Assembly (NCBI GenBank): GCA_023229365.1 | Contig: JALNZK010000002.1 | Coordinates: forward strand, 190,343 to 254,342 | Length of the DNA stretch: 64,000 nucleotides | Origin: Pseudomonadota bacterium | GTDB lineage: Bacteria > Myxococcota_A > Polyangia > JAAYKL01 | Direction of reading: 5' to 3' | Part shown: positions 19,894-60,661 of the stretch, one piece after another | Position numbering within the stretch: position 1 is the first letter of the stretch | Layout of the letters: each line of letters opens with the position of its first letter | Notes under the pieces: generated by a model | What the model saw: only the letters and a program-made list of their open reading frames with translations | The model's database searches: none | What the model was told of the DNA's origin: nothing | Program-made: the position numbers and the translations under genes

Positions 19894-19899
19894 CCAGAC

Positions 19900-24500: not shown

Positions 24501-24510
24501 AGGAGTCTCC

Positions 24511-26474: not shown

Positions 26475-26670
26475 TGAGCTTCCTACATACGTTGATAAGC
26501 GTATTTAAAGAGGCAGAGCGGTGATACCCTCCGCAGTATTTACACTTGTAAACTGTCTGATTTTTGCAAATAGCCGCTTCTTCAGTGGTGTATCTTTTTT
26601 TGCGGCCACAAGCCCGAAGACGACGATTATTTTGTTTGGCTATTTCTGCAAAATGAGCATATTTATTCAT
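26440..26670 (-). CDS. small zinc-ribbon protein
   Basis: CKNQTVYKCKYCGGYH. Confidence 0.3.
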   Translation of the reverse strand: MNKYAHFAEIAKQNNRRLRACGRKKRYTTEEAAICKNQTVYKCKYCGGYHRSASLNTLINVCRKLNEHKQSKRQQI

Positions 26671-36623: not shown

Positions 36624-37238
36624 TTGATGAATCGACTTATCTTTATTATAATTATACTGAATCAGATATTAATGGCAACTCTTGTTCATTGCAAAAGATA
36701 TCCTGTGCCGGAAAGTTTTATGATACAAAACTTCCCCACCATTACACAACCAGATGATATTTCTTGTGGACCCACAAGTTGTGTAATGGTTGCTGAATAT
36801 TATGGCAAAAAACTAACGGTTGTAGAAGCAAAAAAACTCGGGAAAACTATCTGGGGAACATATAAAGGAAAAGAAATAGGCATGACATCTCCAGATTATG
36901 TTCCTGTTATTTTGCAAAAAGTGGGTTTATCTATCACGTTAGAAAAAGGTAATCTAAATAAATTGCAGCATTATGTCTCCCTCAATAAGCCAATTATGGT
37001 GCTTGTGCGTACTGGGGATAAATTTTGGCATTATGTAGTAGTTATTGGCTATAATCAAGATAAAATCTTTATTTCTGACCCTGGTTTTGGCGAAATTTAC
37101 AGCATATCGAATAAAGATTTCTTGTCCGCATGGAGTTTTTCTGGTACTTTGCGTGGCGAAAAAATACCAACAAATTTGTATGGAATGATAGTAGAATGGG
37201 CAGATGTTAAAGGAAATTTAATGTTTGTCCCTAAATAA
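36624..37238 (+). CDS. papain-like C39-family cysteine peptidase with signal/TM N-terminus
   Basis: QPDDISCGPTSCVMVAEYYG (compare C39 Qx5CGxAxLxM), WHYVVVIGYN (His) and IFISDPGFG (Asp). Confidence 0.45.
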   Translation: MMNRLIFIIIILNQILMATLVHCKRYPVPESFMIQNFPTITQPDDISCGPTSCVMVAEYYGKKLTVVEAKKLGKTIWGTYKGKEIGMTSPDYVPVILQKVGLSITLEKGNLNKLQHYVSLNKPIMVLVRTGDKFWHYVVVIGYNQDKIFISDPGFGEIYSISNKDFLSAWSFSGTLRGEKIPTNLYGMIVEWADVKGNLMFVPK

Positions 37239-37986
37239 TAATATGAATTTCAAACAATGGCTAGAATCAGTAGGAATTATAGGCTCTGTACCCGAAGCTT
37301 TAAGCACTTTGGGGCTAAAACCAGGGGCATCTAAAGAAGAAATTGCAAAAGCATTTAGAGCAATGTCTATGCGACACCATTCTGATGTAGGCGGCTCTGA
37401 TACTATACAAAAACGACTTAATGCTGCATTTGACCTGTTAAAGAGTCGTGATTTTCAGACGGCTGGCGGTAGAGGACCAGAGTGGAATCCACCTGAACCT
37501 CCTAGATGGGATGGAAGCAATGGGCCGGGAGCACGTTGGGCTGCTTATCAACAAAGAAGAAATAATGATTTGCCACCTTGGCAAACAGACGAAAGATCAT
37601 CTAATAACTCAGTTGGCGGCAGTCGCAAAAACATTAATTATTGCTTGAAGGAAATATATGAAAAAGCAATGGAAAATGGCGGCAATGTTAAAAAATATAC
37701 TTTTGACGCTTTTGATGGAAGATTTTTCAGAGGAATATTCACTGCTTATTGCAACCCACAAACATTAGGCTTTGCTGGCGAAGTAATGGATGATTGGAAT
37801 AGTAAGGGAGCTAATTCATACGAAACTTATGCGGTACTAGCATCAAGAGACAATTCTGCACTTCTTGTTCGGTTACGAGGAAAAGATGTGTCAAATATGC
37901 ATATGGGCTGGGAATTTTCCAATGAAGATAGAAATAGTGAGCATTGGAGAAGAGAATTTAAAAAAGAATTAGATGAAATTCAATAG
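37225..37986 (+). CDS. J-domain-like protein with degenerate HSD tripeptide
   Basis: KEEIAKAFRAMSMRHHSDVGGS resembles a DnaJ J-domain but HPD is replaced by HSD. Confidence 0.35.
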   Translation: MSLNNNMNFKQWLESVGIIGSVPEALSTLGLKPGASKEEIAKAFRAMSMRHHSDVGGSDTIQKRLNAAFDLLKSRDFQTAGGRGPEWNPPEPPRWDGSNGPGARWAAYQQRRNNDLPPWQTDERSSNNSVGGSRKNINYCLKEIYEKAMENGGNVKKYTFDAFDGRFFRGIFTAYCNPQTLGFAGEVMDDWNSKGANSYETYAVLASRDNSALLVRLRGKDVSNMHMGWEFSNEDRNSEHWRREFKKELDEIQ

Positions 37987-39161: not shown

Positions 39162-39421
39162 CGAAAAGGCCCTGTGTAAAGAAACCCTTCAAGTCTTGTG
39201 AGATTTGGTGGAGGAACTGGTTTCATTCCTTTTGGGAATGGAATCCTCTCACGAAGAACATCTTCATAATAGTCGCAATCACAAATGACTGGACGATTTG
39301 CAGAACGATCTTCAGGCATATTATTCCTGCGGAGCGGGCTCTCTATGGATAGCGTCGAACACTTCACGGCGATGGACGGGCACCTCCTTGGGGGCCTCGA
39401 CACCCAATCGTACCTTGTCAC
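39128..39421 (-). CDS. hypothetical small protein with C-terminal CxxC
   Basis: 97 aa, ends ...[10 protein letters not shown]. Confidence 0.3.
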
Positions 39422-39564
39422 CTCTAATCTCCACTACAGTGATTGTAATATCGTCGTTGATTACAATCGATTCGTTTTTCTTGCGGCTAAGTACCAGCAT
39501 GATACACTCCTTTGTTGAAGAAAGTAACTAAACTAAGTATAGCAACTTGAAGGTCAACTGTCAA

Positions 39565-40727: not shown

Positions 40728-41099
40728 TTATTGTCGTTCTTTGGGGTGAGTTTTGGATTTTAAAGTTACAATAATAGCTCCTAAATTCCAATCATTTTCC
40801 ACCGCATAAGAAAAATTATGTCGATCTAGCACATCTTTGACTAATTGCTGCATTATTGGGCTGTTGCCCGTTATTATCCGAGCAGGCAGATTTTTGAGAA
40901 AAACAAAATTCTCAACCAATCTGTCTACTTGATGATGCCTAACACTATGTAGGTCTAATTCATCCATAGCGGAGACTAAAGGAATCGAACCTTCACCGGG
41001 GTTTAAGCCGGGCTTGTTTTCGAAACAAGTGCGACAAAGCCAATATTCGCCTAATCTCCATTTTTTGTCAATTCGTTCCAAGAACCAATTCTTTTCCAA
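40728..41099 (-). CDS. hypothetical protein
   Basis: 123 aa. Confidence 0.3.
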   Translation of the reverse strand: MEKNWFLERIDKKWRLGEYWLCRTCFENKPGLNPGEGSIPLVSAMDELDLHSVRHHQVDRLVENFVFLKNLPARIITGNSPIMQQLVKDVLDRHNFSYAVENDWNLGAIIVTLKSKTHPKERQ

Positions 41100-41497
41100 T
41101 GAACACTGCCTTTGGAAAGTTTATTGAAAAACGCCTGTGTTATACAAACCTCACAATTTTGTATAAACATCTCTCCTTCTTCTGCTTTTAAAGGATCGTT
41201 CCATCTATTTCCATCAAACAGAGCTATTAGAACAAAAGTCTCACTGGCCACCTGTGCCAGTATCCAATAGCCATGTTCATTATGAAATATATCACCACTT
41301 TTATACATCATTGGTGGTAATCTACAGAGCGTTGGTTTGCCCAAGGGAATTTCAGCACAGGGATTTTGCACTTTGGATCGAACCTTTGGTTCCAATGGAA
41401 TTTCACTGTAATAGTCCCAATTACGATTCTGTCCATATTGTTCTTCCAACCACTTATTATAGCATTCTTCGTCTTCAATGTATGGATTGGAATACAT
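41051..41497 (-). CDS. hypothetical protein
   Basis: 148 aa. Confidence 0.3.
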   Translation of the reverse strand: MYSNPYIEDEECYNKWLEEQYGQNRNWDYYSEIPLEPKVRSKVQNPCAEIPLGKPTLCRLPPMMYKSGDIFHNEHGYWILAQVASETFVLIALFDGNRWNDPLKAEEGEMFIQNCEVCITQAFFNKLSKGSVHWKRIGSWNELTKNGD

Positions 41498-41499
41498 GC

Positions 41500-42117
41500 T
41501 TATTTTTTCACAAATGAGAAACCAGCAAGGTCTTCATTTTGGCTTTCTCTGTCTTGGTCGAAACCATGAAAAAGATGATCCAATATTGCTTTGCTGTCTA
41601 CCAATCCACAATGCTTGTAATGTACCACTTTCTCTCCACCATGTCGCACCACAACAATTATTGCTTTGATTCTAATGAGCCAATCTACCACATGCTTATA
41701 AAGCAATGCATCCATTCCCTTATCTGTCATTTCTTCTATTGTTAGTAATTCGTATTCCTTATAATAACCACGAGGGGTTATGATAAAACCACAACGATCA
41801 GGACGGAGGTTGGCTGCTAATTTCTTGTTTCGTAGCCATGTGCATTTATAATCTCTGCACAACTGGGGACGGGTTTCATAACAATCACAACCCCCACCCT
41901 CTCTTATGTATGCACACATTGCTTTTGCAGGTTTGTCCCCTTGTTCAAAAAGAAAACAACAGGCATAACAATCACCACAACTATGTGGACGATCTCGAAA
42001 TAATTGCTGCTTTTTATTCCGCTCAGCAGCTTTCTTTTTCTTTTTTTCTAGCTTTTTATTCATAGTGCCCAGGACAGGAGTCGAACCTGCACGGGATTGC
42101 TCCCGCCAGCCCCTCAA
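41500..42117 (-). CDS. Cys-rich hypothetical protein
   Basis: CGDCYACCF...CDCY...CTW. Confidence 0.35.
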   Translation of the reverse strand: MRGWREQSRAGSTPVLGTMNKKLEKKKKKAAERNKKQQLFRDRPHSCGDCYACCFLFEQGDKPAKAMCAYIREGGGCDCYETRPQLCRDYKCTWLRNKKLAANLRPDRCGFIITPRGYYKEYELLTIEEMTDKGMDALLYKHVVDWLIRIKAIIVVVRHGGEKVVHYKHCGLVDSKAILDHLFHGFDQDRESQNEDLAGFSFVKK

Positions 42118-42148
42118 GCTGGTGCGGCTGCCATTTCGCCACCTGGGC
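42066..42148 (-). tRNA. tRNA-Leu (anticodon GAG), class II
   Basis: Hand fold: acceptor gcccagg/cctgggc, anticodon loop ttGAGgg, long variable arm, T-loop GGTTCGACTCC, discriminator A. Confidence 0.6.
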
Positions 42149-42769
42149 TTACAAATGTTGCTTATCTATCCAACCCCTGCTTTTTCTTCCTTTGCCACGA
42201 TTTCTTCCAGCGAAGGTAGGCAATTGCATATCGCAGTTACCACAAACCAACCTTACATTTTCTAATCTATGGTCTTCGGGATCGCCGTTGATGTGATCCA
42301 AAATAAGCGGGATAGGTTTTCCCATCCATTCGCTATTATTGCAGATTTCACATTGCCTTCCTCTAGTTTCAGCTAAATACTTTTTCGCCATGCTCGGATT
42401 ATATCCGTAACCACAATTGGTTGGCAACAAAGCATTACTACTCTCGATCAATTCCTTCTTTTTCTTCCATTTCGATTCATTATTGCAGGCGTAGGAACAG
42501 TATTTTTTGTTCGTGGTTAAAGAGCCACAATTTAAACACTTGCAAAGTACCGGGCTTTGGGTGTTCCTCGCCACTCCTTTGTTGTTGAAGCTTGCCGAAC
42601 AGCCACTACTACAGAAGTCATTCCTTCTTTTCTCATACGCTATTGTGAGTCCACAATTTTTACATAATTTAGGCTTCAGCAAGTACCGATCAAGGCATCT
42701 TTTGTGCTTTTCTCGCTGATAATGTCTGTTTTTTAATCCGCCTAATCTTCCACATTCGCTTTTATTCAT
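42149..42769 (-). CDS. HNH endonuclease with N-terminal zinc-ribbon repeats
   Basis: ILDHINGDPEDHRLENVRLVCGNCDMQ (HNH). CKNCGLTIAYEKRRNDFCSSGC and CLNCGS...YCSYAC modules. Confidence 0.55.
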   Translation of the reverse strand: MNKSECGRLGGLKNRHYQREKHKRCLDRYLLKPKLCKNCGLTIAYEKRRNDFCSSGCSASFNNKGVARNTQSPVLCKCLNCGSLTTNKKYCSYACNNESKWKKKKELIESSNALLPTNCGYGYNPSMAKKYLAETRGRQCEICNNSEWMGKPIPLILDHINGDPEDHRLENVRLVCGNCDMQLPTFAGRNRGKGRKSRGWIDKQHL

Positions 42770-42927
42770 TGCTACCTCTGTTTCTTGAAAATAATTATAA
42801 GATTATATAGTAATCCTACATTCATTTTTCGAGAAACAAATTTGGCAAGAGCTACTTATTGGAATTACACCAATGCCTTCGCATTACGAGTGCGATATAC
42901 TGCTGACTATACGAAAGTAGCATAAGC

Positions 42928-43013
42928 GGAAGGTGTGGGAGTCGAACCCACAAGGCTTTTTACACTCGTCCGCTTTCCAAGCGGGTGCCGTCGCCAATCG
43001 GCTAGACCTTCCT
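42928..43013 (-). tRNA. tRNA-Ser (GGA), class II
   Basis: Acceptor ggaaggt/accttcc, anticodon loop ttGGAaa, long variable arm, T-loop GGTTCGACTCC. Confidence 0.55.
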
Positions 43014-43319
43014 TTTAAACAACTCTGGATTTTCTGCTACAATGCGTTTTGTTTCTTCGTGACGCAACCGCCAATCCTCTTCTTCCTGGGCCATATCACG
43101 AATCAACTGCCCAGTAGCCAGAAATTTGTCCACACAATCATCACAGATGCCGAAAATAAATCGTTCTAAATCATGTCTCGACCCATAGCCAGCCATGAAA
43201 CCATCCACGTTAGCATCATCCCAGCAACTGCTTTGCGGCGTGCCATCCGACGTTTCGGGGTAGGGTTGCAATTGCTTGCAACAGCCTATACAGAGGATTT
43301 TAACATCTTTTGCCTTCAT
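43002..43319 (-). CDS. Cys-rich small protein (start trimmed to an internal Met to clear the tRNA)
   Basis: MKAKDVKILCIGCCKQ...CDDCVDKF. The ORF-track N-terminus overlaps tRNA-Ser(UGA). Confidence 0.35.
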   Translation of the reverse strand: MKAKDVKILCIGCCKQLQPYPETSDGTPQSSCWDDANVDGFMAGYGSRHDLERFIFGICDDCVDKFLATGQLIRDMAQEEEDWRLRHEETKRIVAENPELFKRKV

Positions 43320-43331
43320 TACAATCTCCAG

Positions 43332-43414
43332 CGGAAGCGACAGGATTCGAACCTGCAACCCGTCTTAGGGGCAACGGTTTTCAAGACCGCCCGCTAACCA
43401 TTCGCCTCGCTTCC
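43332..43414 (-). tRNA. tRNA-Ser (UGA), class II
   Basis: Acceptor ggaagcg/cgcttcc, anticodon loop ctTGAaa, long variable arm, T-loop GGTTCGAATCC. Confidence 0.55.
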
Positions 43415-43680
43415 TAATGAGCCTCAAATCCCTTCTTCTCAATATCCTGTTTAATTTGTTCTATTACCTTAGTTCTGTTCACATAAGATTGGATCACGTA
43501 TTGTCTGCCACTTGATGTAGTCAATTCGTTTGTTTCCTCATCAAAAACTTTAGGTGTAGAAACAAACACCGATTTTCCATCTTCAAAATTAGGATGCCCA
43601 TAGACTTGCCCAGATAGCCTCCAAACATCCATCCCACAACCTAATTCCATTTCGTATTTTGCATTTTCTAATATAACCAT
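43414..43680 (-). CDS. hypothetical small protein
   Basis: 88 aa. Confidence 0.3.
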   Translation of the reverse strand: MVILENAKYEMELGCGMDVWRLSGQVYGHPNFEDGKSVFVSTPKVFDEETNELTTSSGRQYVIQSYVNRTKVIEQIKQDIEKKGFEAH

Positions 43681-44105
43681 TAAAAATTTCCTTCTGTCAT
43701 GGCTTTGACAAATGCTTTTGCCATCACCATCCCGCCAGTTGTGGGAACAAATCTCGCAATTGGTGAATAAAAATCAGGATTGTTGGAAAAATGTGGATCA
43801 ATACTACCTTGTGCCAATAAATCCGCCACTGTTCCCTCAGCATAGACCAAGATTTTTACACCCTCAAAGTTTGTGCAATCAGGATATTTAATCCTGACAA
43901 TCAAAAATTCTCCAATTTGTTCCGAATATAAAATCTCAAAATTCTTTGGATTAGGATTCGGAAATTTCTTTTTTGCCTTCCTCCTCCCCTGTGTTTGCAC
44001 CTGACAAGTCTCTGGTGATTGCTGCTGGTTACAATTGCAATATACAACCGTTGGCTTATCGTATGAAGAAGAACTGCCACCAAAACCAAGTCCCATGATT
44101 AGCAT
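43680..44105 (-). CDS. hypothetical protein
   Basis: 141 aa. Confidence 0.3.
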   Translation of the reverse strand: MLIMGLGFGGSSSSYDKPTVVYCNCNQQQSPETCQVQTQGRRKAKKKFPNPNPKNFEILYSEQIGEFLIVRIKYPDCTNFEGVKILVYAEGTVADLLAQGSIDPHFSNNPDFYSPIARFVPTTGGMVMAKAFVKAMTEGNF

Positions 44106-45523
44106 GCCTCCTTTTGTAATTTAGCATCCCTGCGAGCTTTCTTTAATCTATTCGAACAACTTACAGAGCAGGTTTCGTGAGTTGCTTTGCGTTTGGTGTA
44201 CACTTTTTTACACACCAAACAACGAGCCGTTTTTTTTGCCACTGAAGCTTTGAAACATTCTTGGCTGCAAAATCTTGATTGGGCTTTTGTTCTTGCATGA
44301 AACTTTTGACGACAAAATTCACAACAGTAAATTGGCCACGATTGTTTTCGACATTCTTCACTGCAATACTTGGCACCATTTGATTGTTTGGAAAGAATCT
44401 TAAATATATTGCCACAAATTTTGCATTTCTTTTTTGTCAAAAGTCCTTTTGCCGATGCCTCTACATTCTCTTTCTTTAACTGTTGGATTTTATAATAATC
44501 AGTGTTCCAACACTTTTTACTGCAATACATTTGTGTGGCATAATTTACGCCAAATTCTTTTTTGCAACAAATGCAAATTCTTTTGTTTTTTCCACGTTTT
44601 CTGTGTTTTTCTGCCCACCAAGCATTACAACATTTTTTTGAGCAAAATAATGAAATATAGGATTTTGGCTTAAATATATTCCCACAATTCTTGCAGGGAC
44701 GTGGATTCAGCAGTTCTGGGAACTTTCGCCTCACCAAGCTTTTGCATTTTACACTACAATATATCTTTCTAGAGGTTGGTACATCAAACACGTTTCCACA
44801 AATACATATCCTGCGTTGCTCTAGCCACCGCAACACTTTTTTCAAACGTATGCGAATTGCTTCTTTGGTTAGTCCTAATTCATCGCCTATCTCTTTAAGG
44901 GTCATTCTGCGACCCTTCAAACCGTAATATCGAAAAAGGACATCTCTGTATTTTTTAGGTATTTGTTTACGACGCACTAAAGACAACACTTCGTCAACCT
45001 GTTTTGCAACTTCGCTTTGTTGTCCTCTGTTAATATTATCAATTGGCTCTAAGGTTTTGTCTTCTTCAATACAACAACTAAAAGACCCAACAGTTTTTAC
45101 TTTATTTATTTGTTGAAGAAGGGCTTCGTCTTTTGAAGATATTTCTTCTTTATCTTGAGATAGCCGAAATGCTCTTTTGTTTGCCCATTGCGGGATATAA
45201 ATAATTTTTTTCTGAGCACGGGCATCATTTATAGCATGTTCAACCGCTGTGCTGACATAAGTTGACAGCTTTGCTGTGATTCCATCCCAATGATCTACAG
45301 CACGACATATGGCTATGCTGGCTTCTGTTAAAAACTCATCATCTATTTCTTTGCCCTTACAGGCGTCTCTTACTTTGCTAAACGCTAGACGCAAACAAGA
45401 TTCGATGAGCTTGTGTCTTGCTTCTTGGTTGCCTGCCTTTGCTTTTGGAAGCAATTCCAAACACTCTTGATGACTTAGTATTTTGACATGTTTTAAATCA
45501 TTTAAATAAGCATCAATATCCAC
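44099..45523 (-). CDS. sigma-70-family sigma factor with C-terminal zinc-ribbon repeat extension; start uncertain
   Basis: VLFRYYGLKGRRMTLKEIGDELGLTKEAIRIRLKKVLRWL (region 4 HTH), region 2-like KLIESCLRLAFSKVRD, then about 200 aa of CxxCGNxF...YCSxKC repeats. The ORF-track start at 45619 overlaps a tRNA, and no ATG lies downstream of it. The first in-frame alternative is a GTG at 45523 (V of FIVDID), used here as the proposed start. Confidence 0.55.
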   Translation of the reverse strand: MDIDAYLNDLKHVKILSHQECLELLPKAKAGNQEARHKLIESCLRLAFSKVRDACKGKEIDDEFLTEASIAICRAVDHWDGITAKLSTYVSTAVEHAINDARAQKKIIYIPQWANKRAFRLSQDKEEISSKDEALLQQINKVKTVGSFSCCIEEDKTLEPIDNINRGQQSEVAKQVDEVLSLVRRKQIPKKYRDVLFRYYGLKGRRMTLKEIGDELGLTKEAIRIRLKKVLRWLEQRRICICGNVFDVPTSRKIYCSVKCKSLVRRKFPELLNPRPCKNCGNIFKPKSYISLFCSKKCCNAWWAEKHRKRGKNKRICICCKKEFGVNYATQMYCSKKCWNTDYYKIQQLKKENVEASAKGLLTKKKCKICGNIFKILSKQSNGAKYCSEECRKQSWPIYCCEFCRQKFHARTKAQSRFCSQECFKASVAKKTARCLVCKKVYTKRKATHETCSVSCSNRLKKARRDAKLQKEAC

Positions 45524-45558
45524 AATAAACTTCCTTGTGTTTGTATCATCTTGCAGAG

Positions 45559-45634
45559 TAGCACCAGGGGGATTCGAACCCACCACTACCCAGTGTTTAA
45601 AACTGGTGACTTCTGCCAATTGGTCTATGGTGCC
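45559..45634 (-). tRNA. class I tRNA-like gene, anticodon UAA (Leu-type anticodon, short variable arm)
   Basis: Hand fold: acceptor ggcacca/tggtgct with G1-U72, D-loop aattggcag, anticodon arm ccagt-ttTAAac-actgg, T-loop GGTTCGAATCC, discriminator A. Confidence 0.45.
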
Positions 45635-45639
45635 ATGAG

Positions 45640-45713
45640 TAGCGAGGAGGGGATTCGAACCCCTACTGTCTGGTTCCTAAGACCAGTGCCGCTGCCAATT
45701 GGGCTACCTCGCC
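45640..45713 (-). tRNA. class I tRNA-like gene, anticodon UAG (Leu-type anticodon, short variable arm)
   Basis: Anticodon arm ctggt-ctTAGga-accag. Backbone identical to the gene at 47763..47836 except the anticodon arm. Confidence 0.45.
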
Positions 45714-45715
45714 AT

Positions 45716-46033
45716 TTATGATTGTTCTATATCCTGAACATCAACTCTTTTCCTAAGTTCTTTGAAAATTTCGTGTGCAGCTTCTTTTCCAGTTGTTGCA
45801 GCATCAAGCTTCTTTATCAATTCTGTTGTGCCTAATTTCCACACAGCATATTCTTCATCGGTTTCACAGAGTATTAAATTCAGTTTACCAAACCGAACTA
45901 CAGTCGAATGAGGATTGTCAGACAACCTTCGTAACGATTGTGCTGTTCCTGTGTTGACTCGGATAACAAGGTCTACATCTGAGTTTGCGTTTGGCTTGCC
46001 GTAAGCTCTACTGCCCGTAATAAATGCGTTCAT
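45716..46033 (-). CDS. minimal nucleotidyltransferase (MNT/MntA-like)
   Basis: GSRAYGKPNANSDVDLVI (GSxxxGxxxxxSDxDL Pol-beta NTase motif). Confidence 0.5.
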   Translation of the reverse strand: MNAFITGSRAYGKPNANSDVDLVIRVNTGTAQSLRRLSDNPHSTVVRFGKLNLILCETDEEYAVWKLGTTELIKKLDAATTGKEAAHEIFKELRKRVDVQDIEQS

Positions 46034-46311
46034 TTTTTTACCTTGTCATCGTTCACTGGCCAATGCTTTCTGCCTTCTGAAACATGCTCTAATGCTTCTC
46101 GGATTATTTCAGGTGATTCCTCAATCTCAACAAAAGCCCACCCTGGCGGGCAATTGCCTACATTTTTCTTGGGAGATACCATCACCCCCAAGTGTTCGCC
46201 ACAAGTTGCTAGCCCGCCACCAATCGATTTGAGAAATTCCGCATAACTGAGATTATCTGGAACTTCCAAATCATTCCCATGTTCATCCTTGCGACCAATG
46301 ACTTTCATTTT
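46030..46311 (-). CDS. small protein overlapping the MNT gene by 4 nt; possible HEPN-like partner
   Basis: Contains REALEH (an Rx4H motif). Start trimmed to internal MKVIGRK to avoid the tRNA overlap. Weak call. Confidence 0.25.
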   Translation of the reverse strand, partial: KMKVIGRKDEHGNDLEVPDNLSYAEFLKSIGGGLATCGEHLGVMVSPKKNVGNCPPGWAFVEIEESPEIIREALEHVSEGRKHWPVNDDKVKK

Positions 46312-46320
46312 TTCTCCAAG

Positions 46321-46406
46321 CGGAAACGGAGGGAGTCGAACCCCCAAGGCTTTTTACACTCATCTGTTTTCAGAACAGGTTTCGTCACCAATCGATTTGC
46401 GTTTCC
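46321..46406 (-). tRNA. class II Ser-like tRNA, anticodon UGA with atypical loop (C at position 33)
   Basis: Variable arm gagtgtaaaaagccttggg is nearly identical to tRNA-Ser(GGA). Anticodon loop tcTGAaa. Confidence 0.4.
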
Positions 46407-46411
46407 GAAAG

Positions 46412-46485
46412 TAGCACCAGAAGGATTCGAACCTTCACTGAACAGTGTTTGAAACTGTTGCCGCTGCCAATTGGGCTATGGTGCC
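46412..46485 (-). tRNA. class I tRNA-like gene, anticodon CAA
   Basis: Anticodon arm acagt-ttCAAac-actgt. Same acceptor/D backbone as the gene at 45559..45634. Confidence 0.45.
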
Positions 46486-46490
46486 ATAAG

Positions 46491-46564
46491 TAGCATCGGT
46501 GGGATTCGAACCCACAACCTCTACATTTTGAGTGTAGCGACTCTGCCAGTTGGTCTACGATGCC
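46491..46564 (-). tRNA. class I tRNA-like gene, anticodon CAA
   Basis: Acceptor ggcatcg/cgatgct, anticodon arm ctaca-ctCAAaa-tgtag, T-loop GGTTCGAATCC. Confidence 0.45.
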
Positions 46565-46570
46565 AAAATA

Positions 46571-47266
46571 TCAAACAACCCCTAGTTGTGTCAGGATTGT
46601 CGCATGTTGCTCAGTCATGGTTGTCAGTTGTGTATTGAGGGATGCAAGTGATGCTTCCAAATCCGACTTCTCTGCCAGTATTACAGCATGCTGTTCTGTC
46701 AAGACTGCTAATTGTGCATTTAAAGATTCAAGAGATGCTTCCAAATCTGCTTTTTCTATCAACAGTTCTTCCGCTGGTGTTTCTCCACTTGCATCAATGC
46801 CCGCATTTACAACCACCAGTCTTTCAGTCTTTGTTAGTATGTCAGCATTTATCAGGTCAATAGATGCTCCACTTGCATCAACGCTCGCACTTACAACTGC
46901 CAGTCTTTCAGTATTTGTTTGTATGCCAGGATTTATCGCATTTATTGCGGCAACAAGTTGTCGCAATTGATATTCTAATGAAAACAGTAATGCCATGCCC
47001 CCAACAACTTGAGCAGCTAAAGGGTGAGTATAAACCAATTCCCAAATATTATCAAAAAATTCAACTTTGTCCTGATCTGCACCCGGATATAGTTGTTTTG
47101 TGGTGTAATTGTAGGGTCTAAAAACAATTGTCAATGGTTGTTTTGTAGCATCAACGTTTATCGTTTGCACGTTAAATGCCACAATATAAAGCTCGTTATA
47201 CACAGCCTCAACAGTGGCAGGAACTATTAGTGGGCTTGGATTAGGAATCAGAGGTAAATCAGCCAT
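46571..47266 (-). CDS. coiled-coil protein with internal ~66-bp tandem repeats
   Basis: Repeated ...TERLAVVSASVDASGASIDLINADIL... units and DLEASLESLNAQL heptads. Confidence 0.4.
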   Translation of the reverse strand: MADLPLIPNPSPLIVPATVEAVYNELYIVAFNVQTINVDATKQPLTIVFRPYNYTTKQLYPGADQDKVEFFDNIWELVYTHPLAAQVVGGMALLFSLEYQLRQLVAAINAINPGIQTNTERLAVVSASVDASGASIDLINADILTKTERLVVVNAGIDASGETPAEELLIEKADLEASLESLNAQLAVLTEQHAVILAEKSDLEASLASLNTQLTTMTEQHATILTQLGVV

Positions 47267-47280
47267 ATTTTTTCCTTTGT

Positions 47281-47502
47281 TTAATTCAAATGTACTGTAC
47301 CACGACCTTTGGTGGTTCTTACGATTTTTGTTATACCATCTTTTTCAACTTTTACAATACGAAGTGGATCACTTGGATACAAAGAGTCAAATGCGTCTAC
47401 ATAACCATCGCAATAAGCTCTTGTTTTATGCTCTATAAAAGATACTTTACGCCATCCAAGATCGCCACTGTTTCTCTCTACGTAATACATTTTTTTCTCC
47501 AA
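47281..47502 (-). CDS. hypothetical small protein
   Basis: 73 aa. Confidence 0.3.
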   Translation of the reverse strand: MEKKMYYVERNSGDLGWRKVSFIEHKTRAYCDGYVDAFDSLYPSDPLRIVKVEKDGITKIVRTTKGRGTVHLN

Positions 47503-47503
47503 G

Positions 47504-47578
47504 TGCCACGAGCGAGATTCGAACTCGCACTGTCTAGTATCTCGGACTAGCGACTCCTACCAATTGGTCTACCGTGGC
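47504..47578 (-). tRNA. class I tRNA-like gene, anticodon GAG (C at position 33)
   Basis: Acceptor gccacgg/tcgtggc, anticodon arm ctagt-ccGAGat-actag, T-loop GAGTTCGAATCTC. Confidence 0.35.
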
Positions 47579-47584
47579 GTACAT

Positions 47585-47740
47585 CACATATAATGATCTT
47601 GATCTTTTTCTCGCCAATATTCATCCTCTTTTTGCCGATACTCAGCATACTCTGCGTTTGTATAGTATTGATACGATCCACAGGCACACGGATTACAATT
47701 ACATATTCTGCATACTGCTGCATTATCTATATCATTCATT
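47585..47740 (-). CDS. small Cys-rich ORF between tRNA genes (below the 60-aa cutoff of the ORF track)
   Basis: Hand-translated as MNDIDNAAVCRICNCNPCACGSYQYYTNAEYAEYRQKEDEYW... Confidence 0.2.
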
Positions 47741-47762
47741 ATTATTTCTCGGGTGTGTAAAG

Positions 47763-47836
47763 TAGCGAGGAGGGGATTCGAACCCCTACTGGATAGTTCC
47801 TGAAACTATTGCCGCTGCCAATTGGGCTACCTCGCC
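47763..47836 (-). tRNA. class I tRNA-like gene, anticodon CAG
   Basis: Anticodon arm atagt-ttCAGga-actat. Rest identical to the gene at 45640..45713. Confidence 0.45.
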
Positions 47837-47842
47837 ATAAAG

Positions 47843-47920
47843 TGGCTGTGGCGGGTCTCGAAGCCGCAAAACATCACAAAGTTCTGGACTTTGCCGCTTT
47901 TCCGATTTGCGTACACAGCC
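47843..47920 (-). tRNA. atypical tRNA-like gene (degenerate T-arm; anticodon loop tcCAGaa)
   Basis: Acceptor ggctgtg/cacagcc pairs well, but T-loop is cttcgagac and position 33 is C. Possible pseudo-tRNA. Confidence 0.25.
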
Positions 47921-47925
47921 ATAAG

Positions 47926-48008
47926 TGCCCAAGGAGGGACTTGAACCCTCAAGAGATTTCTCTCGCCAGATTTTGAGTCTGGTGCGGTTGCCATTTCGCC
48001 ACCTGGGC
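47926..48008 (-). tRNA. tRNA-Leu (CAA), class II
   Basis: Acceptor gcccagg/cttgggc, anticodon loop ctCAAaa, long variable arm, T-loop GGTTCAAGTCC. Confidence 0.55.
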
Positions 48009-48013
48009 ATAAG

Positions 48014-48085
48014 TGGAGCAGGTGGGTATCGCACCCACGTCTACAGCTTTTCAGACTGTCACTAATCTACCTCAGTTACTGCTCC
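48014..48085 (-). tRNA. tRNA-Phe (GAA) candidate, atypical T-loop (tgcgata)
   Basis: Anticodon arm acagt-ctGAAaa-gctgt, 72 nt. Confidence 0.4.
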
Positions 48086-48090
48086 ATAAG

Positions 48091-48163
48091 TGGTAGGGGT
48101 CGGAGTCGAACCGACACTTCCACGTTTTCAGCGTGGCACTCAGACCAGCTAAGTTACCCTACC
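48091..48163 (-). tRNA. tRNA-Phe (GAA)
   Basis: Anticodon arm ccacg-ctGAAaa-cgtgg, T-arm gtcgg-ttcgact-ccgac. Confidence 0.5.
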
Positions 48164-48614
48164 TCATTCCATCATGTATTTCTCTATGACAATTACTACA
48201 AACAAGCACACATTTTTTTACTTCTTCGATAAGTTTGTCCCAACGTGCTAACATTCCTTTGCTGGAAAATCCAAAACTTTTTTCTTGTTTTTCATCCATG
48301 TTTTTGTGATGAAACTCAAGAGCCTTCATACAACGATTATACCCACATTCTGAACAAGCACCGCCACACATTTTGACTAATTCAATCTTTCTGTTCTTTC
48401 TGGCTTTTCTTTGCCATTTTTTATATTTTTCATTATCACGCTTTCTTTTTTCTTCAGTTGTTAGCGGGATATGTTGAATTTCTAGTTTTTTTGTGTTGCC
48501 ACAACCAAAAGGCGAACATTCAAGGCAATATTTGCGATTGTGCAGGTTTCTTATTTTTCCATCTATTTTAAGTTTTGATGGGAACTTTTTTTTACATAAT
48601 TTACATAATGGCAT
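48159..48614 (-). CDS. HNH endonuclease with zinc-ribbon N-terminus
   Basis: EFHHKN...CVLVCSNCHREIHDG (HNH). CKLCKKKF...YCLECSPFGC. Confidence 0.55.
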   Translation of the reverse strand: MPLCKLCKKKFPSKLKIDGKIRNLHNRKYCLECSPFGCGNTKKLEIQHIPLTTEEKRKRDNEKYKKWQRKARKNRKIELVKMCGGACSECGYNRCMKALEFHHKNMDEKQEKSFGFSSKGMLARWDKLIEEVKKCVLVCSNCHREIHDGMR

Positions 48615-48688
48615 AGTTTTTCTCCTATGCTATTATGTAGTAAAGTAGTATCAAAAAATCCAACTTTTTTAGGCTACTTTTTCCTCAG

Positions 48689-48781
48689 TGGGAAGTGACG
48701 GAATCGAACCGCTCAAAGTCATACCACCCCAAATTCTTTAACGACTAACAGATTTACAGTCTGCCTTGGGGAACACCTCCC
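48689..48781 (-). tRNA. 93-nt tRNA-like element with canonical acceptor and T-arm but no clean D/anticodon arms
   Basis: Acceptor gggaggt/acttccc, T-loop GGTTCGATTCC. Internal ccccaa...ttgggg long-range helix. Confidence 0.25.
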
Positions 48782-48944
48782 ATTTTGGTTCTCAGTGTGT
48801 TATTACACCAAAGGCAAGAGCGACAATACACACTCTTTGCGACACCCAGTATTGTTCTTTCCAGGTGATTGCTTTTCGCCACGCAGCTAACGCTACCACT
48901 CTTTAAATGCTGGACACTCCTAATCCCACATCCTGAGAACCAAG

Positions 48945-49026
48945 TGTGCCGAGCCGGAATTGAACCGACAAGTCCCGAAGGAGTCTCGTTTACAGCGAGG
49001 TGGGCCTGCCAATGCCCAATCGACAC
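48945..49026 (-). tRNA. tRNA-Tyr (GUA), class II
   Basis: Acceptor gtgtcga/tcggcac, D-stem gggc/gccc, anticodon loop ctGTAaa, variable arm with tcc-ttcg-gga hairpin, T-loop GGTTCAATTCC. Confidence 0.5.
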
Positions 49027-49028
49027 AT

Positions 49029-49391
49029 TTATTTTTCTTTCAAGTAACCTTTTTCCTGTGCGTGTTTGTCACATAGGGTTTTAACCCAACCATTTTTGTT
49101 CGTGTGCCTACATCCTTGTTCACCACAAACTTCGCAAATATGATATGAATCTCTTTCTGCCTGTTCAATTAAATTTAGAACAGAATGAACATCCCCGCCA
49201 CCAGTGTCAATTGAGTAGTAGAACCTAAGTCCTCCAAATTTTTCTTTTATTTGCAGAACTTTTAAATCCACCTTATTGGCACGAATCGCCGTAAACAATC
49301 GATCTACAAGATCATTCCAACCTTCCGCTATGGCAATTTCCACATAGCCTGTTGCTGGGAAAAACTCAGGATATTTTTCCTTGAAATTCAT
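49029..49391 (-). CDS. hypothetical protein with C-terminal Cys/His cluster
   Basis: 120 aa, ...YHICEVCGEQGCRHTNKNGWVKTLCDKHAQE. Confidence 0.35.
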   Translation of the reverse strand: MNFKEKYPEFFPATGYVEIAIAEGWNDLVDRLFTAIRANKVDLKVLQIKEKFGGLRFYYSIDTGGGDVHSVLNLIEQAERDSYHICEVCGEQGCRHTNKNGWVKTLCDKHAQEKGYLKEK

Positions 49392-49702
49392 TTCTTTTTA
49401 CCAAAAATTTTCTTGTGGGCTTGCATGTATTTGTTTGTTCTCTCTGCCCAATCTTTTATGATTGCTTCAATTTTATTTTGTGAAACCCTTGTTCCAATCA
49501 ACGCATCCGTTCCCTTGTATTGGCCAGCATAACGATGGTGTTTCGTAAGCATATTTGCTAGTTCATCTGCCAAAAGTGTAGCATCATCCAAATCCTCTCT
49601 ACAACCAGCCGCCTCTATTTTACCATTAGTATGAACCGCATAAGCATAATAAAGTGGCGGGCATTGTTTATCAACATACACTTGTGGGTTCCAACGGGGC
49701 AT
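49388..49702 (-). CDS. hypothetical protein
   Basis: 104 aa, coupled. Confidence 0.3.
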   Translation of the reverse strand: MPRWNPQVYVDKQCPPLYYAYAVHTNGKIEAAGCREDLDDATLLADELANMLTKHHRYAGQYKGTDALIGTRVSQNKIEAIIKDWAERTNKYMQAHKKIFGKKK

Positions 49703-49705
49703 TTT

Positions 49706-50023
49706 CTATTCCTGTATTTGCTTGATAACCATGAAATGTTGTTTTTTGCCGATTCGAATTATTCCCCATCCTGGCCAAATGAATTTAACCAGCGATTCAG
49801 GATCGGTTACTTTTTCGCCATTCCAAGACAAAGAACCTTCTTTAACTTTGCGTCTAACTTCACTGATGCTTGGTAAGGCACCGCCATCAACACAAATCTG
49901 TGCTATTTTTCCATCCTGCACTGTTTTAGGACGCATCCACCACCACATGCTGGCAAATGTTTCTTGACAAACAGCCTTGGGCTTGTTTAGTATTTCCCAT
50001 AATTCATCAAATGTCAACATCAT
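49706..50023 (-). CDS. hypothetical protein (start trimmed to internal MM to clear the tRNA)
   Basis: The ORF-track N-terminal 33 codons are the reverse complement of tRNA-Ser(GCU). Confidence 0.3.
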   Translation of the reverse strand: MMLTFDELWEILNKPKAVCQETFASMWWWMRPKTVQDGKIAQICVDGGALPSISEVRRKVKEGSLSWNGEKVTDPESLVKFIWPGWGIIRIGKKQHFMVIKQIQE

Positions 50024-50037
50024 AATTTCTCCAAAAG

Positions 50038-50126
50038 CGGAAGTGACTAGAATCGAACTAGCACTGGCTTTGACACCAGAACGGTTTAGCAAACCGCCGC
50101 AACAAACCAATATTTGCCTCACTTCC
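50038..50126 (-). tRNA. tRNA-Ser (GCU), class II
   Basis: Acceptor ggaagtg/cacttcc, D-stem gcaa/ttgc, anticodon arm gcggt-ttGCTaa-accgt, long variable arm, T-loop AGTTCGATTCT. Confidence 0.5.
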
Positions 50127-50161
50127 GAAGGCGTTTTTCAATTGTCAAAGAACTCTCACAG

Positions 50162-50245
50162 TGGTCTCGGCGGGAGTCGAACCCGCACGGGCATTACACC
50201 CAGGAGATTTTAAGTCTCCATTGTCTACCATTCCAACACGAGACC
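50162..50245 (-). tRNA. tRNA-Leu (UAA), class II
   Basis: Acceptor ggtctcg/cgagacc, anticodon loop ctTAAaa, long variable arm, T-loop GGTTCGACTCC. Confidence 0.5.
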
Positions 50246-54483: not shown

Positions 54484-55422
54484 TTATTTGAAAAATTCTT
54501 CTGGTTTTGCAAATTCCATACCCAATCGGGTGGCAAAAGTTCTGTCGCTGGTAGAATCTCCGACAAAAATGCATTTTTGTGGGTTGAGTTTCCAACTCTC
54601 GATTAGTTGCACCCCCATCCCACTCGCTGGCTTTCTGCAATAGCAAGTCGGCGGCACATAATGTGGGCAAATAACCGTTTCAGCAATCACCCCATCCAAC
54701 AATTTATTGGTGCGTTCAATTGCTGCCAATGCGTTCGCTGCCGTGACCGTTCCTTTTGCGATTCCCGATTGGTTACTGGCAGCCAGCACCATATAACCAT
54801 CTTTTTTGTATTTTTGCAATACCTCTTTTCGCTTTGGAAGAATCACAACCTCCTCTGGAGAGGTAGGGTATGGCTCGGGACTTCCAGAGGGAGTGGATCG
54901 CACCGTATCATCCAAATCACAAATAATCGCCTTACCAGCGTAGGCTGATGAGCGACGAACAAAAGGAATTTTTTTGACACTGGTAAATCCCTCACCAGTG
55001 GTCGGTTTTTGCAATTCTTTGCGGTATCGGAAAAACACAGCAATGGGAAACATATTAGGGTCTTTAACATCCTTCAAAGACTCAGGCGTTAAAAATAATT
55101 TTCCATAACGCTCCCACATGCGATGCAACGCATTGATAATTGCATCTTCAATACTGGTGCTCATCCATTGACAATGAATATCTGCCCCATGTTTTTTAGC
55201 AGCGACAATAAAAGGTGCCCTGCCCAATTCTGTGGCAAATAAATTGTCAATAACGATATTTTGTTTGGCTTGCAAGGCTGCCTCGAAGGCAGGCAACAGG
55301 TCTATGACCTTGCCACCGGCTTTGTCCCGATTCAAATAAGTATATCCCTTGTCGGCAAAGCCTTTGGAAACCGTGCTTTTGCCTGATGCTGGACAACCAC
55401 AAACCAAAACCACTTCTGACAT
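54484..55422 (-). CDS. polynucleotide 5'-kinase / 3'-phosphatase (T4 Pnk-like)
   Basis: N-terminal LVCGCPASGKSTVSK (T4 Pnk has GCPGSGKST). C-terminal HAD phosphatase motifs AIICDLDDTV, LAASNQSGIAKG, IFVGDSTSD. 312 aa (T4 Pnk is 301 aa). Confidence 0.65.
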   Translation of the reverse strand: MSEVVLVCGCPASGKSTVSKGFADKGYTYLNRDKAGGKVIDLLPAFEAALQAKQNIVIDNLFATELGRAPFIVAAKKHGADIHCQWMSTSIEDAIINALHRMWERYGKLFLTPESLKDVKDPNMFPIAVFFRYRKELQKPTTGEGFTSVKKIPFVRRSSAYAGKAIICDLDDTVRSTPSGSPEPYPTSPEEVVILPKRKEVLQKYKKDGYMVLAASNQSGIAKGTVTAANALAAIERTNKLLDGVIAETVICPHYVPPTCYCRKPASGMGVQLIESWKLNPQKCIFVGDSTSDRTFATRLGMEFAKPEEFFK

Positions 55423-58898: not shown

Positions 58899-59915
58899 CT
58901 AAGACAATATTCTGTTCGCTTCCCTTATGTTGTTAAATATCCAATCTTCCATTTTGGGAAAATTAGTAAAACATACGCCATCCACATCGGCATATACGGA
59001 AACAGGGGCACAAATCAAGCCTTCCAACCCCAATTGTTTTGCTTTATGTGCATTTTCTATGACATGTTTTGGACCCTCGGCTCCAGTATACGTGGGGCAA
59101 ATTTTTGCTTGAGCAGCAGCTATGTTTGTCCACCAATCATTGCCAAAAGCAGAAAAAAGAATTGTTTTTAAACCATCTTTATTTTCTAATATTACATTTT
59201 CACACCCAACATTACCAAATACATTATTGTTGGGATCATTATAATAGGGCACATATTGCAACCATTTTTCTTGGTATAAATTTATTCTTTCTTTTGAAAT
59301 TCTCGAAAGTTCTCCCACAATCCATTCTTCCGATGGTTTGCCAGATTCTTGGCATTTTTGCTGAGCAAAAGAATCAAACCACCAAGGCGAATCATGTATG
59401 TTTACCTTTTCCCGGCCATCCGACGACATAAAACAAGTTGCTGGAAATAAATATTCACCACACTGTCCTATTGATGAAATGCAAACAGCATGCTTTAAAA
59501 CTTCTCGTAGTTTCTTGATATATGTTTGAACATAATTTTCTGCGACTTGGTTCCAATAGCTAAATATCCTCCCAGCCAGCACAAGAATGTGACTGAATGA
59601 AATGGAATCTTTAGCATTATACAATTTTGCATAACTGGAAAAATTATTTTTTTCTCCACAACAATTCGACAAATACCAAGATGGATCGTCAGCCCAAAAT
59701 GGCACTCCAATGGGCGTTTGAATCAATAGTTTTACCCCATGTCTGTTTAACATATCTTCATAAGCCAACCAATCACCAAAATCATAAACACCAGGGGAAG
59801 GTTCAGTTTGCCACCACCAATCAAACGCCACAATTGTTTTTGTTCCAGCATCAGCAAATTTCTTTATATCTTCTTCTTGGAAGTTTCGATTATAATCCAA
59901 AAGCATAATATCCAT
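58899..59915 (-). CDS. GH42/GH35-like TIM-barrel glycoside-hydrolase-like protein, paralog A
   Basis: FDWWWQTEPSPGVYDFGDW...GVKLLIQTP (compare WxxxEPxxGxYDF...GLKVxL). 338 aa, shorter than classical GH42. Confidence 0.35.
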   Translation of the reverse strand: MDIMLLDYNRNFQEEDIKKFADAGTKTIVAFDWWWQTEPSPGVYDFGDWLAYEDMLNRHGVKLLIQTPIGVPFWADDPSWYLSNCCGEKNNFSSYAKLYNAKDSISFSHILVLAGRIFSYWNQVAENYVQTYIKKLREVLKHAVCISSIGQCGEYLFPATCFMSSDGREKVNIHDSPWWFDSFAQQKCQESGKPSEEWIVGELSRISKERINLYQEKWLQYVPYYNDPNNNVFGNVGCENVILENKDGLKTILFSAFGNDWWTNIAAAQAKICPTYTGAEGPKHVIENAHKAKQLGLEGLICAPVSVYADVDGVCFTNFPKMEDWIFNNIREANRILS

Positions 59916-59920
59916 GATGC

Positions 59921-60658: not shown

Positions 60659-60661
60659 ATT

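Follow-up and report, generated by a model that had tools for sequence, protein, structure and literature searches.

A probable class II tRNA block in the genome of an uncultivated jumbo or huge phage

The tRNA regions of phages T4, T5 and RsoM2USA consist of co-oriented genes arranged in tandem, with spacers of a few nucleotides and with endonuclease genes (segB in T4, HNH in T5) and small open reading frames (ORFs) between them. Their tRNA genes are found without an encoded CCA and in the context of replication and nucleotide-metabolism genes. A second described system is the type I, or arm-less, tRNA-Leu of Streptomyces coelicolor, tRNALeu(CAA), and of mycobacterial tRNA arrays: a molecule of ~75 nucleotides with a Leu anticodon and a variable loop of 4-5 nucleotides, which coexists with class II (long-variable-arm) tRNA-Leu. 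Here we describe a tRNA island that resembles both, located in a 64,000-nucleotide stretch of contig JALNZK010000002.1 (assembly GCA_023229365.1, positions 190,343 to 254,342 of the forward strand), the whole of which we call the window. Since phage tRNA arrays and arm-less tRNA-Leu are both known, the locus is not a new kind of system; we read it, with a probability of about 0.68, as an unusually pure block of class II tRNA genes belonging to an uncultivated jumbo or huge phage.

T4, T5 and RsoM2USA each mix many tRNA isotypes in one region, unlike the window block, which is almost entirely made up of Leu, Ser, Tyr and Phe genes. The type I Leu genes also differ from those of Streptomyces and mycobacteria: here six or seven copies, which cover all Leu anticodons, occur in one phage, and a G1-U72 pair is conserved in the phage family. 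An earlier note made from the DNA letters (the original prediction) had likened the arrangement to T4-like tRNA regions, and the comparison is apt; this is a phage tRNA region with homing-type HNH endonuclease genes.

We analyzed the window together with 10 kb on either side, 84 kb in all from a genome of at least 228 kb. ARAGORN called 17 tRNA genes in the window, all 17 on the minus strand and within positions 40969-50245, and these genes scored 38.8-66.4 bits against the Rfam tRNA model. Rfam adds a tRNA-Thr(CGU) at 42850-42921, which brings the island, 9.3 kb long (40969-50245) and entirely on the minus strand, to 18 solid tRNA genes and two degenerate tRNA-like elements. There are no tRNA genes in the other 54 kb of the window and none in the 10-kb flanks taken from public assemblies; the clustering of 20 tRNA-like genes in 9.3 kb is far beyond chance. 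The automated tools, the check set beforehand, thus agree with the original prediction that a large minus-strand island of at least 18 tRNA genes lies here. Its proposed extent of 42066-50245 is real but too short, as the island continues to tRNA-Ser(CGA) at 40969-41059, and its list of anticodons was right except that the Thr gene was overlooked, so that the claimed restriction to Leu, Ser, Phe and Tyr does not strictly hold. It had also counted two tRNA-Ser(UGA) genes, one of which is solid (43331-43414) and the other a degenerate Ser-like element (46322-46406), and had singled out two aberrant tRNA-like elements, both of which are present (47842-47920 and 48690-48781). The tRNA genes and tRNA-like elements are:

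40969-41059, minus strand: tRNA-Ser(CGA), class II (ARAGORN; Rfam tRNA, 40.1 bits)
42065-42148, minus strand: tRNA-Leu(GAG), class II (ARAGORN; Rfam, 48.2 bits)
42850-42921, minus strand: tRNA-Thr(CGU) (Rfam tRNA, 54.1 bits; sequence and fold; missed by ARAGORN)
42926-43012, minus strand: tRNA-Ser(GGA), class II (ARAGORN; Rfam)
43331-43414, minus strand: tRNA-Ser(UGA), class II (ARAGORN; Rfam)
45558-45634, minus strand: type I (arm-less) tRNA-Leu(UAA) (ARAGORN; Rfam; alignment)
45639-45713, minus strand: type I tRNA-Leu(UAG) (ARAGORN; Rfam; alignment)
46322-46406, minus strand: degenerate Ser-like tRNA element with a UGA anticodon (Rfam tRNA-Sec model, 38.1 bits, below threshold)
46411-46485, minus strand: type I tRNA-Leu(CAA) (ARAGORN; Rfam; alignment)
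46490-46564, minus strand: type I tRNA-Leu(CAA), a second, diverged copy (ARAGORN; Rfam; alignment)
47503-47578, minus strand: type I tRNA-Leu(GAG), its anticodon loop having C33 and A37 (ARAGORN; Rfam; sequence)
47762-47836, minus strand: type I tRNA-Leu(CAG) (ARAGORN; Rfam; alignment)
47842-47920, minus strand: atypical tRNA-like RNA with a Leu(CAG) anticodon (ARAGORN; Rfam, 39 bits)
47925-48008, minus strand: tRNA-Leu(CAA), class II (ARAGORN; Rfam)
48013-48085, minus strand: tRNA-Phe(GAA), with T loop UGCGAUA (ARAGORN; Rfam; fold)
48090-48163, minus strand: tRNA-Phe(GAA) (ARAGORN; Rfam, 66.4 bits)
48690-48781, minus strand: weak tRNA-like remnant with a GUA anticodon arm (Rfam, 24.6 bits, E = 0.43)
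48944-49026, minus strand: tRNA-Tyr(GUA), class II (ARAGORN; Rfam)
50037-50126, minus strand: tRNA-Ser(GCU), class II (ARAGORN; Rfam)
50161-50245, minus strand: tRNA-Leu(UAA), class II (ARAGORN; Rfam)

Within the range covered by the original prediction, the class II genes carry the anticodons GAG, CAA and UAA (Leu), GGA, UGA and GCU (Ser) and GUA (Tyr); the remaining anticodons are two GAA (Phe) and a set of UAA, UAG, CAA (twice), GAG and CAG on six Leu tRNAs of 75-77 nucleotides. Ten genes of the island have Leu anticodons, and anticodon coverage is complete for Leu, Ser and Tyr, the three class II tRNA families of bacteria. Cloverleafs are kept by compensatory changes in the stems, and the tRNA genes are real. 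Tandem genes lie 4-5 nucleotides apart or abut the ribosome-binding sites of small ORFs, several of which begin no more than ~15 nucleotides from a tRNA 3' end. Each gene ends in the discriminator base followed by C, after which the spacer goes on UUAU in most tandem copies; none encodes CCA. All have the orientation of the flanking genes. Scans of the island for sigma-70 promoters (34 sites, 24 +/- 6 expected) and for terminators (17, 9 +/- 3 expected) gave signals too weak to set transcription units.

Six of the Leu genes form a paralogous type I family, all with A73 and a three-pair D stem, and five of the six with G1-U72. The D loop is CAAUUGGCAG (A14, A15, G18, G19, A20a), and the variable loop has five bases and ends in U48; in the aligned sequences, the determinants of Escherichia coli leucyl-tRNA synthetase (LeuRS), namely A73, A14, A15-U48, G18G19 and A20a, are all kept, though they are not exclusive to tRNA-Leu. 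The UAG and CAG copies (45639-45713 and 47762-47836) are 91% identical, and the UAA and CAA copies have the acceptor stem in common. This set duplicates the decoding of all six Leu codons, giving a single phage parallel long-armed and arm-less sets for leucine. When we compared 14 type I Leu genes, drawn from four loci besides the window itself, compensatory double changes appeared in 15 of the 17 stem pairs, and G1-U72 was kept in 11 of the 14 genes.

A search pattern combining the D loop, class I spacing and the T loop matched in at least 119 viral contigs, where about 100 of 125 matching tRNAs have Leu anticodons, all six kinds among them, and in at least 120 bacterial genome contigs, mostly of Actinomycetota and Vibrionaceae, where 85 of 118 do. 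Similar genes are annotated as tRNA-Leu in cultured phages of Streptomyces, Mycobacterium, Vibrio, Enterococcus and Bacillus. The type I tRNA-Leu is an already documented, widespread family: S. coelicolor LeuRS leucylates the type I tRNALeu(CAA) (PMC6614811), and short-variable-loop tRNA-Leu genes occur in mycobacterial tRNA arrays, adjoining an HNH gene (PMC6582537). In E. coli, leucylation does not require the long arm, and the determinants are A73, A15-U48, G18G19 and A20a (PMC9976931). Because the identity elements are kept and the family has almost only Leu anticodons, we infer that the 75-nucleotide Leu-anticodon tRNAs of the island are arm-less leucine acceptors. Among the bacterial arm-less tRNA-Leu-like genes (loci L279-L398), half are single chromosomal genes, and 24 of 118 have the Trp anticodon CCA.

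Several genes of the island depart from the usual tRNA form. The tRNA-Thr(CGU) has a 7-bp acceptor stem with G1-C72 and C2-G71, an anticodon loop CUCGUAA and a non-canonical T loop, UGUAAUU; its ortholog in a relative, the 7-kb sequence L128, adjoins Ser(GGA) and Ser(CGA). G55 replaces the near-universal U55 in this T loop, in that of the tRNA-Phe at 48013-48085 (UGCGAUA) and in that at L128 2909-2981 (UGCGAUU), again in tRNA-Phe and tRNA-Thr genes, and it is probably why ARAGORN missed the Thr gene. The element at 46322-46406, also missed by ARAGORN, is a paralog of Ser(GGA) with C33 and a weak, decayed D arm; it is 76% identical to the Ser(GGA) of L128 and is probably a decaying duplicate. 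The remnant at 48690-48781 has an 8-bp acceptor stem, no D arm and a fold z-score of -0.83, and L128 holds no ortholog of it; with a subthreshold Rfam score, it is probably a pseudogene.

The atypical Leu(CAG) element at 47842-47920 has C33 and a C53-C61 mismatch closing the T loop. Its ortholog at L128 256-366 has an identical 22-nucleotide T arm and two compensatory acceptor pairs, on the strength of which we take the element to be conserved and presumably functional. The L128 gene has the anticodon AAG instead of CAG and a variable region 33 nucleotides longer; variable-arm length changes between these orthologous phage Leu genes. An 18-mer of the odd T arm (GCGGCTTCGAGACCCGCC) had 8 matches in viral contigs and more than 119 in metagenomes (18-23 nucleotides), which we ruled out as relatives; all are chance matches with no proteins in common.

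The window encodes gp32, UvsX/RecA, a family A polymerase (PolA), a DnaB-like helicase and Pnkp. The island is 100% identical to part of European Nucleotide Archive (ENA) contig k141_1691469 (228,182 bp; ERZ27247350) and to Logan contigs of two other runs, and a copy of the sequence at the Joint Genome Institute (JGI) lies on a 340,072-bp contig. The source is an uncultivated phage of jumbo or huge size, with a genome of 228 kb or more (228-340 kb). Megablast of the island against 50,697 phage records gave no match. In IMG/VR, searches with the sigma factor and with an alignment of the S4-like protein encoded in the island (see below) gave no close relatives, and a search with a class II Leu 20-mer gave two unrelated phages only.

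LR756511.1, an uncultured huge phage of 595 kb, encodes counterparts of about 25 window proteins, with identities of 22-58% (most at 30-58%), and the replication modules are collinear (window 0.5-17.5 kb, LR756511.1 378.6-403.1 kb). We mapped the tRNA genes of this whole genome. There are 50 class I-sized calls at 176-291 kb, including two Phe, and a block of 12 Leu, Tyr and Ser tRNAs, with nothing else, at 427.7-437.5 kb, ~140 kb away from the class I tRNAs. Like the window island, the block is a discrete Leu/Tyr/Ser group on the strand of its flanking genes, and it lies at the same distance, 25-35 kb, from the syntenic replication module; unlike the island, its Leu tRNAs are all long-armed and it is without Phe, Thr and type I Leu genes. 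An S4-like ORF was not found in the LR756511.1 block by tblastn.

The composition recurs in other relatives. L128, whose S4-like protein is 64% identical to that of the window, has a compact syntenic island in the order partial tRNA, type I Leu(UAG), Ser(GCU), tRNA-like element, S4-like gene, Tyr, Phe, Ser(UGA), Leu(CAA), Ser(GGA), Ser(CGA), Thr(CGU), Leu(GAG), followed by the same CsrA-containing flank; its isotypes are Leu, Ser, Tyr, Phe and Thr(CGU) only. Homologs of the HNH endonuclease associated with the tRNA-Phe genes led to a second jumbo-phage lineage, represented by a 213-kb tubulin-encoding contig and two shorter contigs with the same HNH gene. Two loci of this lineage, L262 and L263, have 9 and 13 tRNAs, all Leu, Ser, Phe or Tyr, including three type I Leu, and the lineage has an unrelated 70-residue ORF resembling the C-terminal domain (CTD, S4-like) of tyrosyl-tRNA synthetase (TyrRS) inside its tRNA island. 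In L265, a huge-phage fragment with the same Phe-HNH-Phe unit, 23 tRNAs were called, and not one is Leu, Ser or Tyr by isotype or anticodon. Among 119 unrelated phage tRNA loci, runs of Leu, Ser, Tyr and Phe genes reach 7 at most, compared to the 17 ARAGORN calls here.

These comparisons suggest that the Leu/Ser/Tyr-rich composition is that of a conserved local block. Given that most of the genome lies outside the sequence covered, the block is probably not the whole tRNA complement of the phage, and other tRNAs would be found in the remaining 145-255 kb. Because LR756511.1 keeps its class II genes apart from 50 class I tRNAs, genome architecture is the better explanation of the anticodon skew. 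The original prediction had named a balanced anticodon set, once flanking sequence was included, as a finding that would refute it; the 10 kb on each side contributed no tRNAs, and such a set is likely to be completed within the remaining 145-255 kb. Together with its relatives, the locus shows that the three long-armed tRNA families of a huge phage can be grouped in a conserved block of their own, away from the remaining tRNAs, an arrangement of which we found no mention in the literature searched. For annotation, it follows that a segregated sub-array, when seen through 64 kb of sequence, can pass for an oddly restricted tRNA complement.

We envisage that the island tRNAs would be transcribed as polycistronic precursors, cut at their 5' ends by host RNase P and at their 3' ends by an RNase Z/BN-type enzyme, supplied with CCA by a nucleotidyltransferase and charged by the host synthetases for Leu, Ser, Tyr, Phe and Thr; the charged tRNAs would then sustain phage translation. 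The block probably grew by local duplication and anticodon switching, and the homing endonucleases would be its selfish passengers. The tRNA-Phe pair, along with its own HNH gene, and one tRNA-Thr(CGU) travel with the block.

Several observations weigh against the reading as a class II block. The sequence covered is 84 kb of at least 228 kb, and the separate class I block is placed elsewhere in the genome by analogy with LR756511.1, which is only distantly related, has tRNAs that are not sequence-orthologous to those of the window, and keeps its Phe genes in the class I region. Clustering can also be looser: in Ralstonia phage RsoM2USA, a few class I genes are scattered through a cluster of Tyr, Leu and Ser, and a five-gene Leu block in LR756501.1 mixes long and short forms. 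For the arm-less genes, the D loop is likewise similar to the one in E. coli tRNA-Trp, so that a Leu-type core is not exclusive evidence, and 18-24 of the pattern matches have a CCA anticodon. Leucylation of the type I tRNA-Leu from S. coelicolor failed with the E. coli LeuRS (PMC6614811); because of this rejection, charging of the phage type I tRNAs would depend on the host.

Other explanations start from the choice of isotypes itself. The original prediction saw in the skew a compensation for AT-rich codons, whereby the tRNAs would supplement codons used more by a phage of 40% G+C than by its host. Codon usage in 72 window ORFs (16,268 codons) makes this very unlikely. UUG is indeed the commonest Leu codon (33%) and has three CAA-anticodon tRNAs, and if the host were more AT-rich than the phage, seven C34 tRNAs (three Leu CAA, two Leu CAG, Ser CGA and Thr CGU) could fill gaps at NNG codons. 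The island, however, covers every codon of four amino acids and not selected ones: readers are present for the rarest codons (CUG and CUC, each 7% of Leu; UCG, 10% of Ser; ACG, 12% of Thr) and absent for the most biased AT-rich ones (AAA, 71%; GAA, 73%; AAU, 73%; GAU, 74%; AUA, 30%; AGA, 34%; and also AUU), and Leu, Ser, Phe and Tyr, taken together, account for 22% of codons, which is ordinary. We give still less credence, indeed hardly any, to the suggestion that the island, together with a nearby Pnkp and a GluQRS-like gene, forms a T4-style system for the repair or replacement of tRNAs cut by anticodon nucleases. A Pnkp-type kinase with an HAD phosphatase is encoded 4 kb away (54484-55422, minus strand; TIGR01663, 3.8e-28, partial and below cut-off; HAD-IIIA domain, 1.2e-20), and Pnkp-type enzymes are recognized RNA-repair components of jumbo phages (PMC7824862). 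Yet no RNA ligase (Rnl1, Rnl2 or RtcB) turned up when ~50 ORFs of the window were scanned, or among the Pfam hits precomputed for the flanks. The closeness of Pnkp to the island is not conserved, the LR756511.1 homolog lying more than 300 kb from the class II block. Nor does the GluQRS-like gene (59921-60658) fit; its product is a truncated catalytic domain of 245 residues, far below the family cut-off (NF004315, 3e-20), and it shows no evident link to the tRNAs of the island, among which the tRNA-Asp/Glu-type substrates that it would imply do not occur.

The island might also serve to outnumber or escape host toxins with a preference for class II tRNAs, such as DUF1814 (AbiEii/MenT-type) nucleotidyltransferases or Schlafen-like nucleases, though we consider this unlikely. 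Ser and Tyr tRNAs, whose synthetases use the arm, would keep it and be supplied in bulk, arm-less Leu would escape recognition, and the stand-alone TyrRS-C-terminal/S4-like protein would bind the variable arm to shield or chaperone class II tRNAs. Such a role would account for three of the four main isotypes being exactly the bacterial class II families, with complete anticodon coverage and with Leu duplicated in arm-less form, for the conservation of this composition in relatives and in a second lineage, and for S4/TyrRS-CTD-like ORFs inside such islands in two lineages. MenT3 is reported to modify tRNA-Ser preferentially and one tRNA-Leu weakly, AbiEii appears to prefer class II tRNAs, with AbiE among the commonest defence systems, and phage tRNAs can rescue infection from tRNA-targeting defences. 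As with T5 tRNA-Lys against PARIS and T5 tRNA-Tyr against the retron Ec78 PtuAB, isoacceptors could replace inactivated host tRNAs; what sets those T5 cases apart from the window island is that the nuclease is defined and that the phage tRNA has a resistant variant of the anticodon loop or stem. But two tRNA-Phe and a tRNA-Thr, all class I, are a misfit, the LR756511.1 block lacks arm-less Leu and a detectable S4-like ORF, and many bacteria have an arm-less tRNA-Leu as a single gene in the chromosome. The S4-like assignment comes from weak sequence matches, the structure model being too poor to use. The characterized bacterial Schlafen cleaves the anticodon arms of many tRNAs and is not class II-specific, and we dropped this lead. 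The broader proposal, that huge-phage class II blocks in general are counter-measures against toxins recognizing the long arm (AbiEii/MenT-type or Schlafen-like), with arm-less Leu as an arm-deletion escape form and the embedded S4-like proteins as a new class of variable-arm-binding protectors, strikes us as distinctly unlikely; the pair 47842-47920 and L128 256-366, with its 33-nucleotide difference, can be cited for the arm-deletion idea. Taken together, the conserved block, the parallel Leu sets and the recurrent TyrRS-C-terminal-like proteins can be tied, in a concrete and testable way, to the recently described class II preference of abundant defence toxins.

The protein-coding genes interleaved with or adjoining the tRNA genes, with starts corrected where needed, are:

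40728-40967, minus strand: 79-residue Smr-domain-like ORF (Pfam Smr, 9e-4, below cut-off), starting right after tRNA-Ser(CGA)
42149-42769, minus strand: HNH endonuclease with two N-terminal CxxC...[YF]CSxxC zinc ribbons (PHROG 10822, 1.9e-21; Pfam HNH_3, weak)
43680-44105, minus strand: 141-residue protein of PHROG 13501, common to huge and jumbo phages
44099-45523, minus strand: sigma-70-like factor, regions 2 and 4 (Pfam, region 4 at 6.8e-8)
45716-46033, minus strand: minimal nucleotidyltransferase (MNT)-like protein, weak match (Pfam NTP_transf_2, 7e-5; NCBIfam MntA, 7.8e-4)
46030-46308, minus strand: 92-residue ORF upstream of the nucleotidyltransferase, no domain found
46571-47266: coiled-coil repeat protein (sequence)
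48159-48614, minus strand: HNH homing-type endonuclease (PHROG 2255, 4.6e-30)
49706-50023, minus strand: 105-residue stand-alone S4-like protein (Pfam PF22421, 1.9e-6; TIGR00234 residues 333-403; PDB 1jh3)

The longest frames of six ORFs begin inside tRNA genes, as the original prediction had noticed for those at 44099-45619, 43002-43358, 46030-46347 and 49706-50122; in-frame starts lie just downstream of the tRNAs, in four of the six after a GGAG or AAGGAAG ribosome-binding site and in two immediately after the tRNA. Gene callers can thus place starts inside tRNA genes, just as ARAGORN can miss a functional-looking tRNA, and both are worth a warning to annotators of such regions. The sigma-70-like factor, correctly recognized in the original prediction, has its true start at a GVG-type GTG at 45523, which makes it identical to a 474-residue JGI gene call (P0001). 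A homolog with 48% identity (P0002) lies, judging by gene positions only, amid densely packed ORFs with no space for a tRNA island. The C-terminal half of the window protein holds six repeats of an FCS-like zinc ribbon, CxxC-x(9-20)-[YF]CSxxC, and the module is also found in both HNH endonucleases.

For the other protein genes, the original prediction was partly right. It had proposed three HNH endonucleases with a common zinc-ribbon module; two stand (42149-42769 and 48159-48614), and the third candidate, 46571-47266, was rejected, with no HNH match in Pfam, in PHROG or on inspection of the sequence. Homologs of the 48159-48614 endonuclease lie between or adjoin tRNA-Phe genes in L262, L263, L265 and L266; this family appears to track tRNA-Phe genes, and the HNH genes look like mobile passengers. 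It had also proposed an MNT/HEPN-like pair. The MNT half is tenable as a weak match to the MNT (GS...DxD) families, as NTP_transf_2 just passes its cut-off and MntA scores 19.3 bits against a cut-off of 60. The 92-residue partner contains the string REALEH, which recalls the Rx4-6H motif of HEPN, but the motif alone is not evidence, and we rejected a HEPN identity; there was no HEPN or other match in five libraries (Pfam, PHROGs, NCBIfam, PADLOC and PDB).

The S4-like protein resembles, by weak sequence matches, the C-terminal S4-like tRNA-binding domain of bacterial TyrRS. An AlphaFold2 model from a 4-sequence alignment had a mean predicted local-distance difference test score (pLDDT) of 50, too low in confidence for a fold. 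In the relatives L128, L129 and L130, the gene always lies directly downstream of tRNA-Ser(GCU), and small TyrRS-C-terminal-like proteins recur inside class II blocks. CsrA-domain genes adjoin tRNA islands in the window (~39350-39510, minus strand), in L128 (5526-5705) and in L265 (3315-3869); together, the CsrA, Smr-like and S4-like ORFs suggest a translation-related neighbourhood. The homolog of the 43680-44105 protein in LR756511.1 is also found among tRNA genes.

Some minor observations concern other arrays and the wider window. In L265, a full-length isoleucyl-tRNA synthetase (4065-6800; TIGR00392, 2.8e-210) lies beside the 23-tRNA array. CUA-anticodon tRNAs (amber suppressors, called 'Pyl' by ARAGORN) occur in LR756511.1 and in other huge-phage arrays (L259 6446-6519; L265 10660-10732), and there is none in the window. 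The Pnkp-type protein is 44.6% identical to its LR756511.1 homolog. The GluQRS-like gene is flanked by two paralogs with 76% DNA identity and weak Glyco_hydro_42-like matches (region 58899-61681, minus strand). Further along the window, a region at 18494-27575 (minus strand) encodes a radical SAM/lysine-2,3-aminomutase-like enzyme, a flavoprotein with a DFP C-terminal domain, an M50 peptidase and an HlyD-like protein, and another at 36624-37986 (plus strand) encodes a C39 peptidase and a DnaJ-like protein; from their domains, these genes look like a peptide modification and export set, an unusual cargo for a phage.

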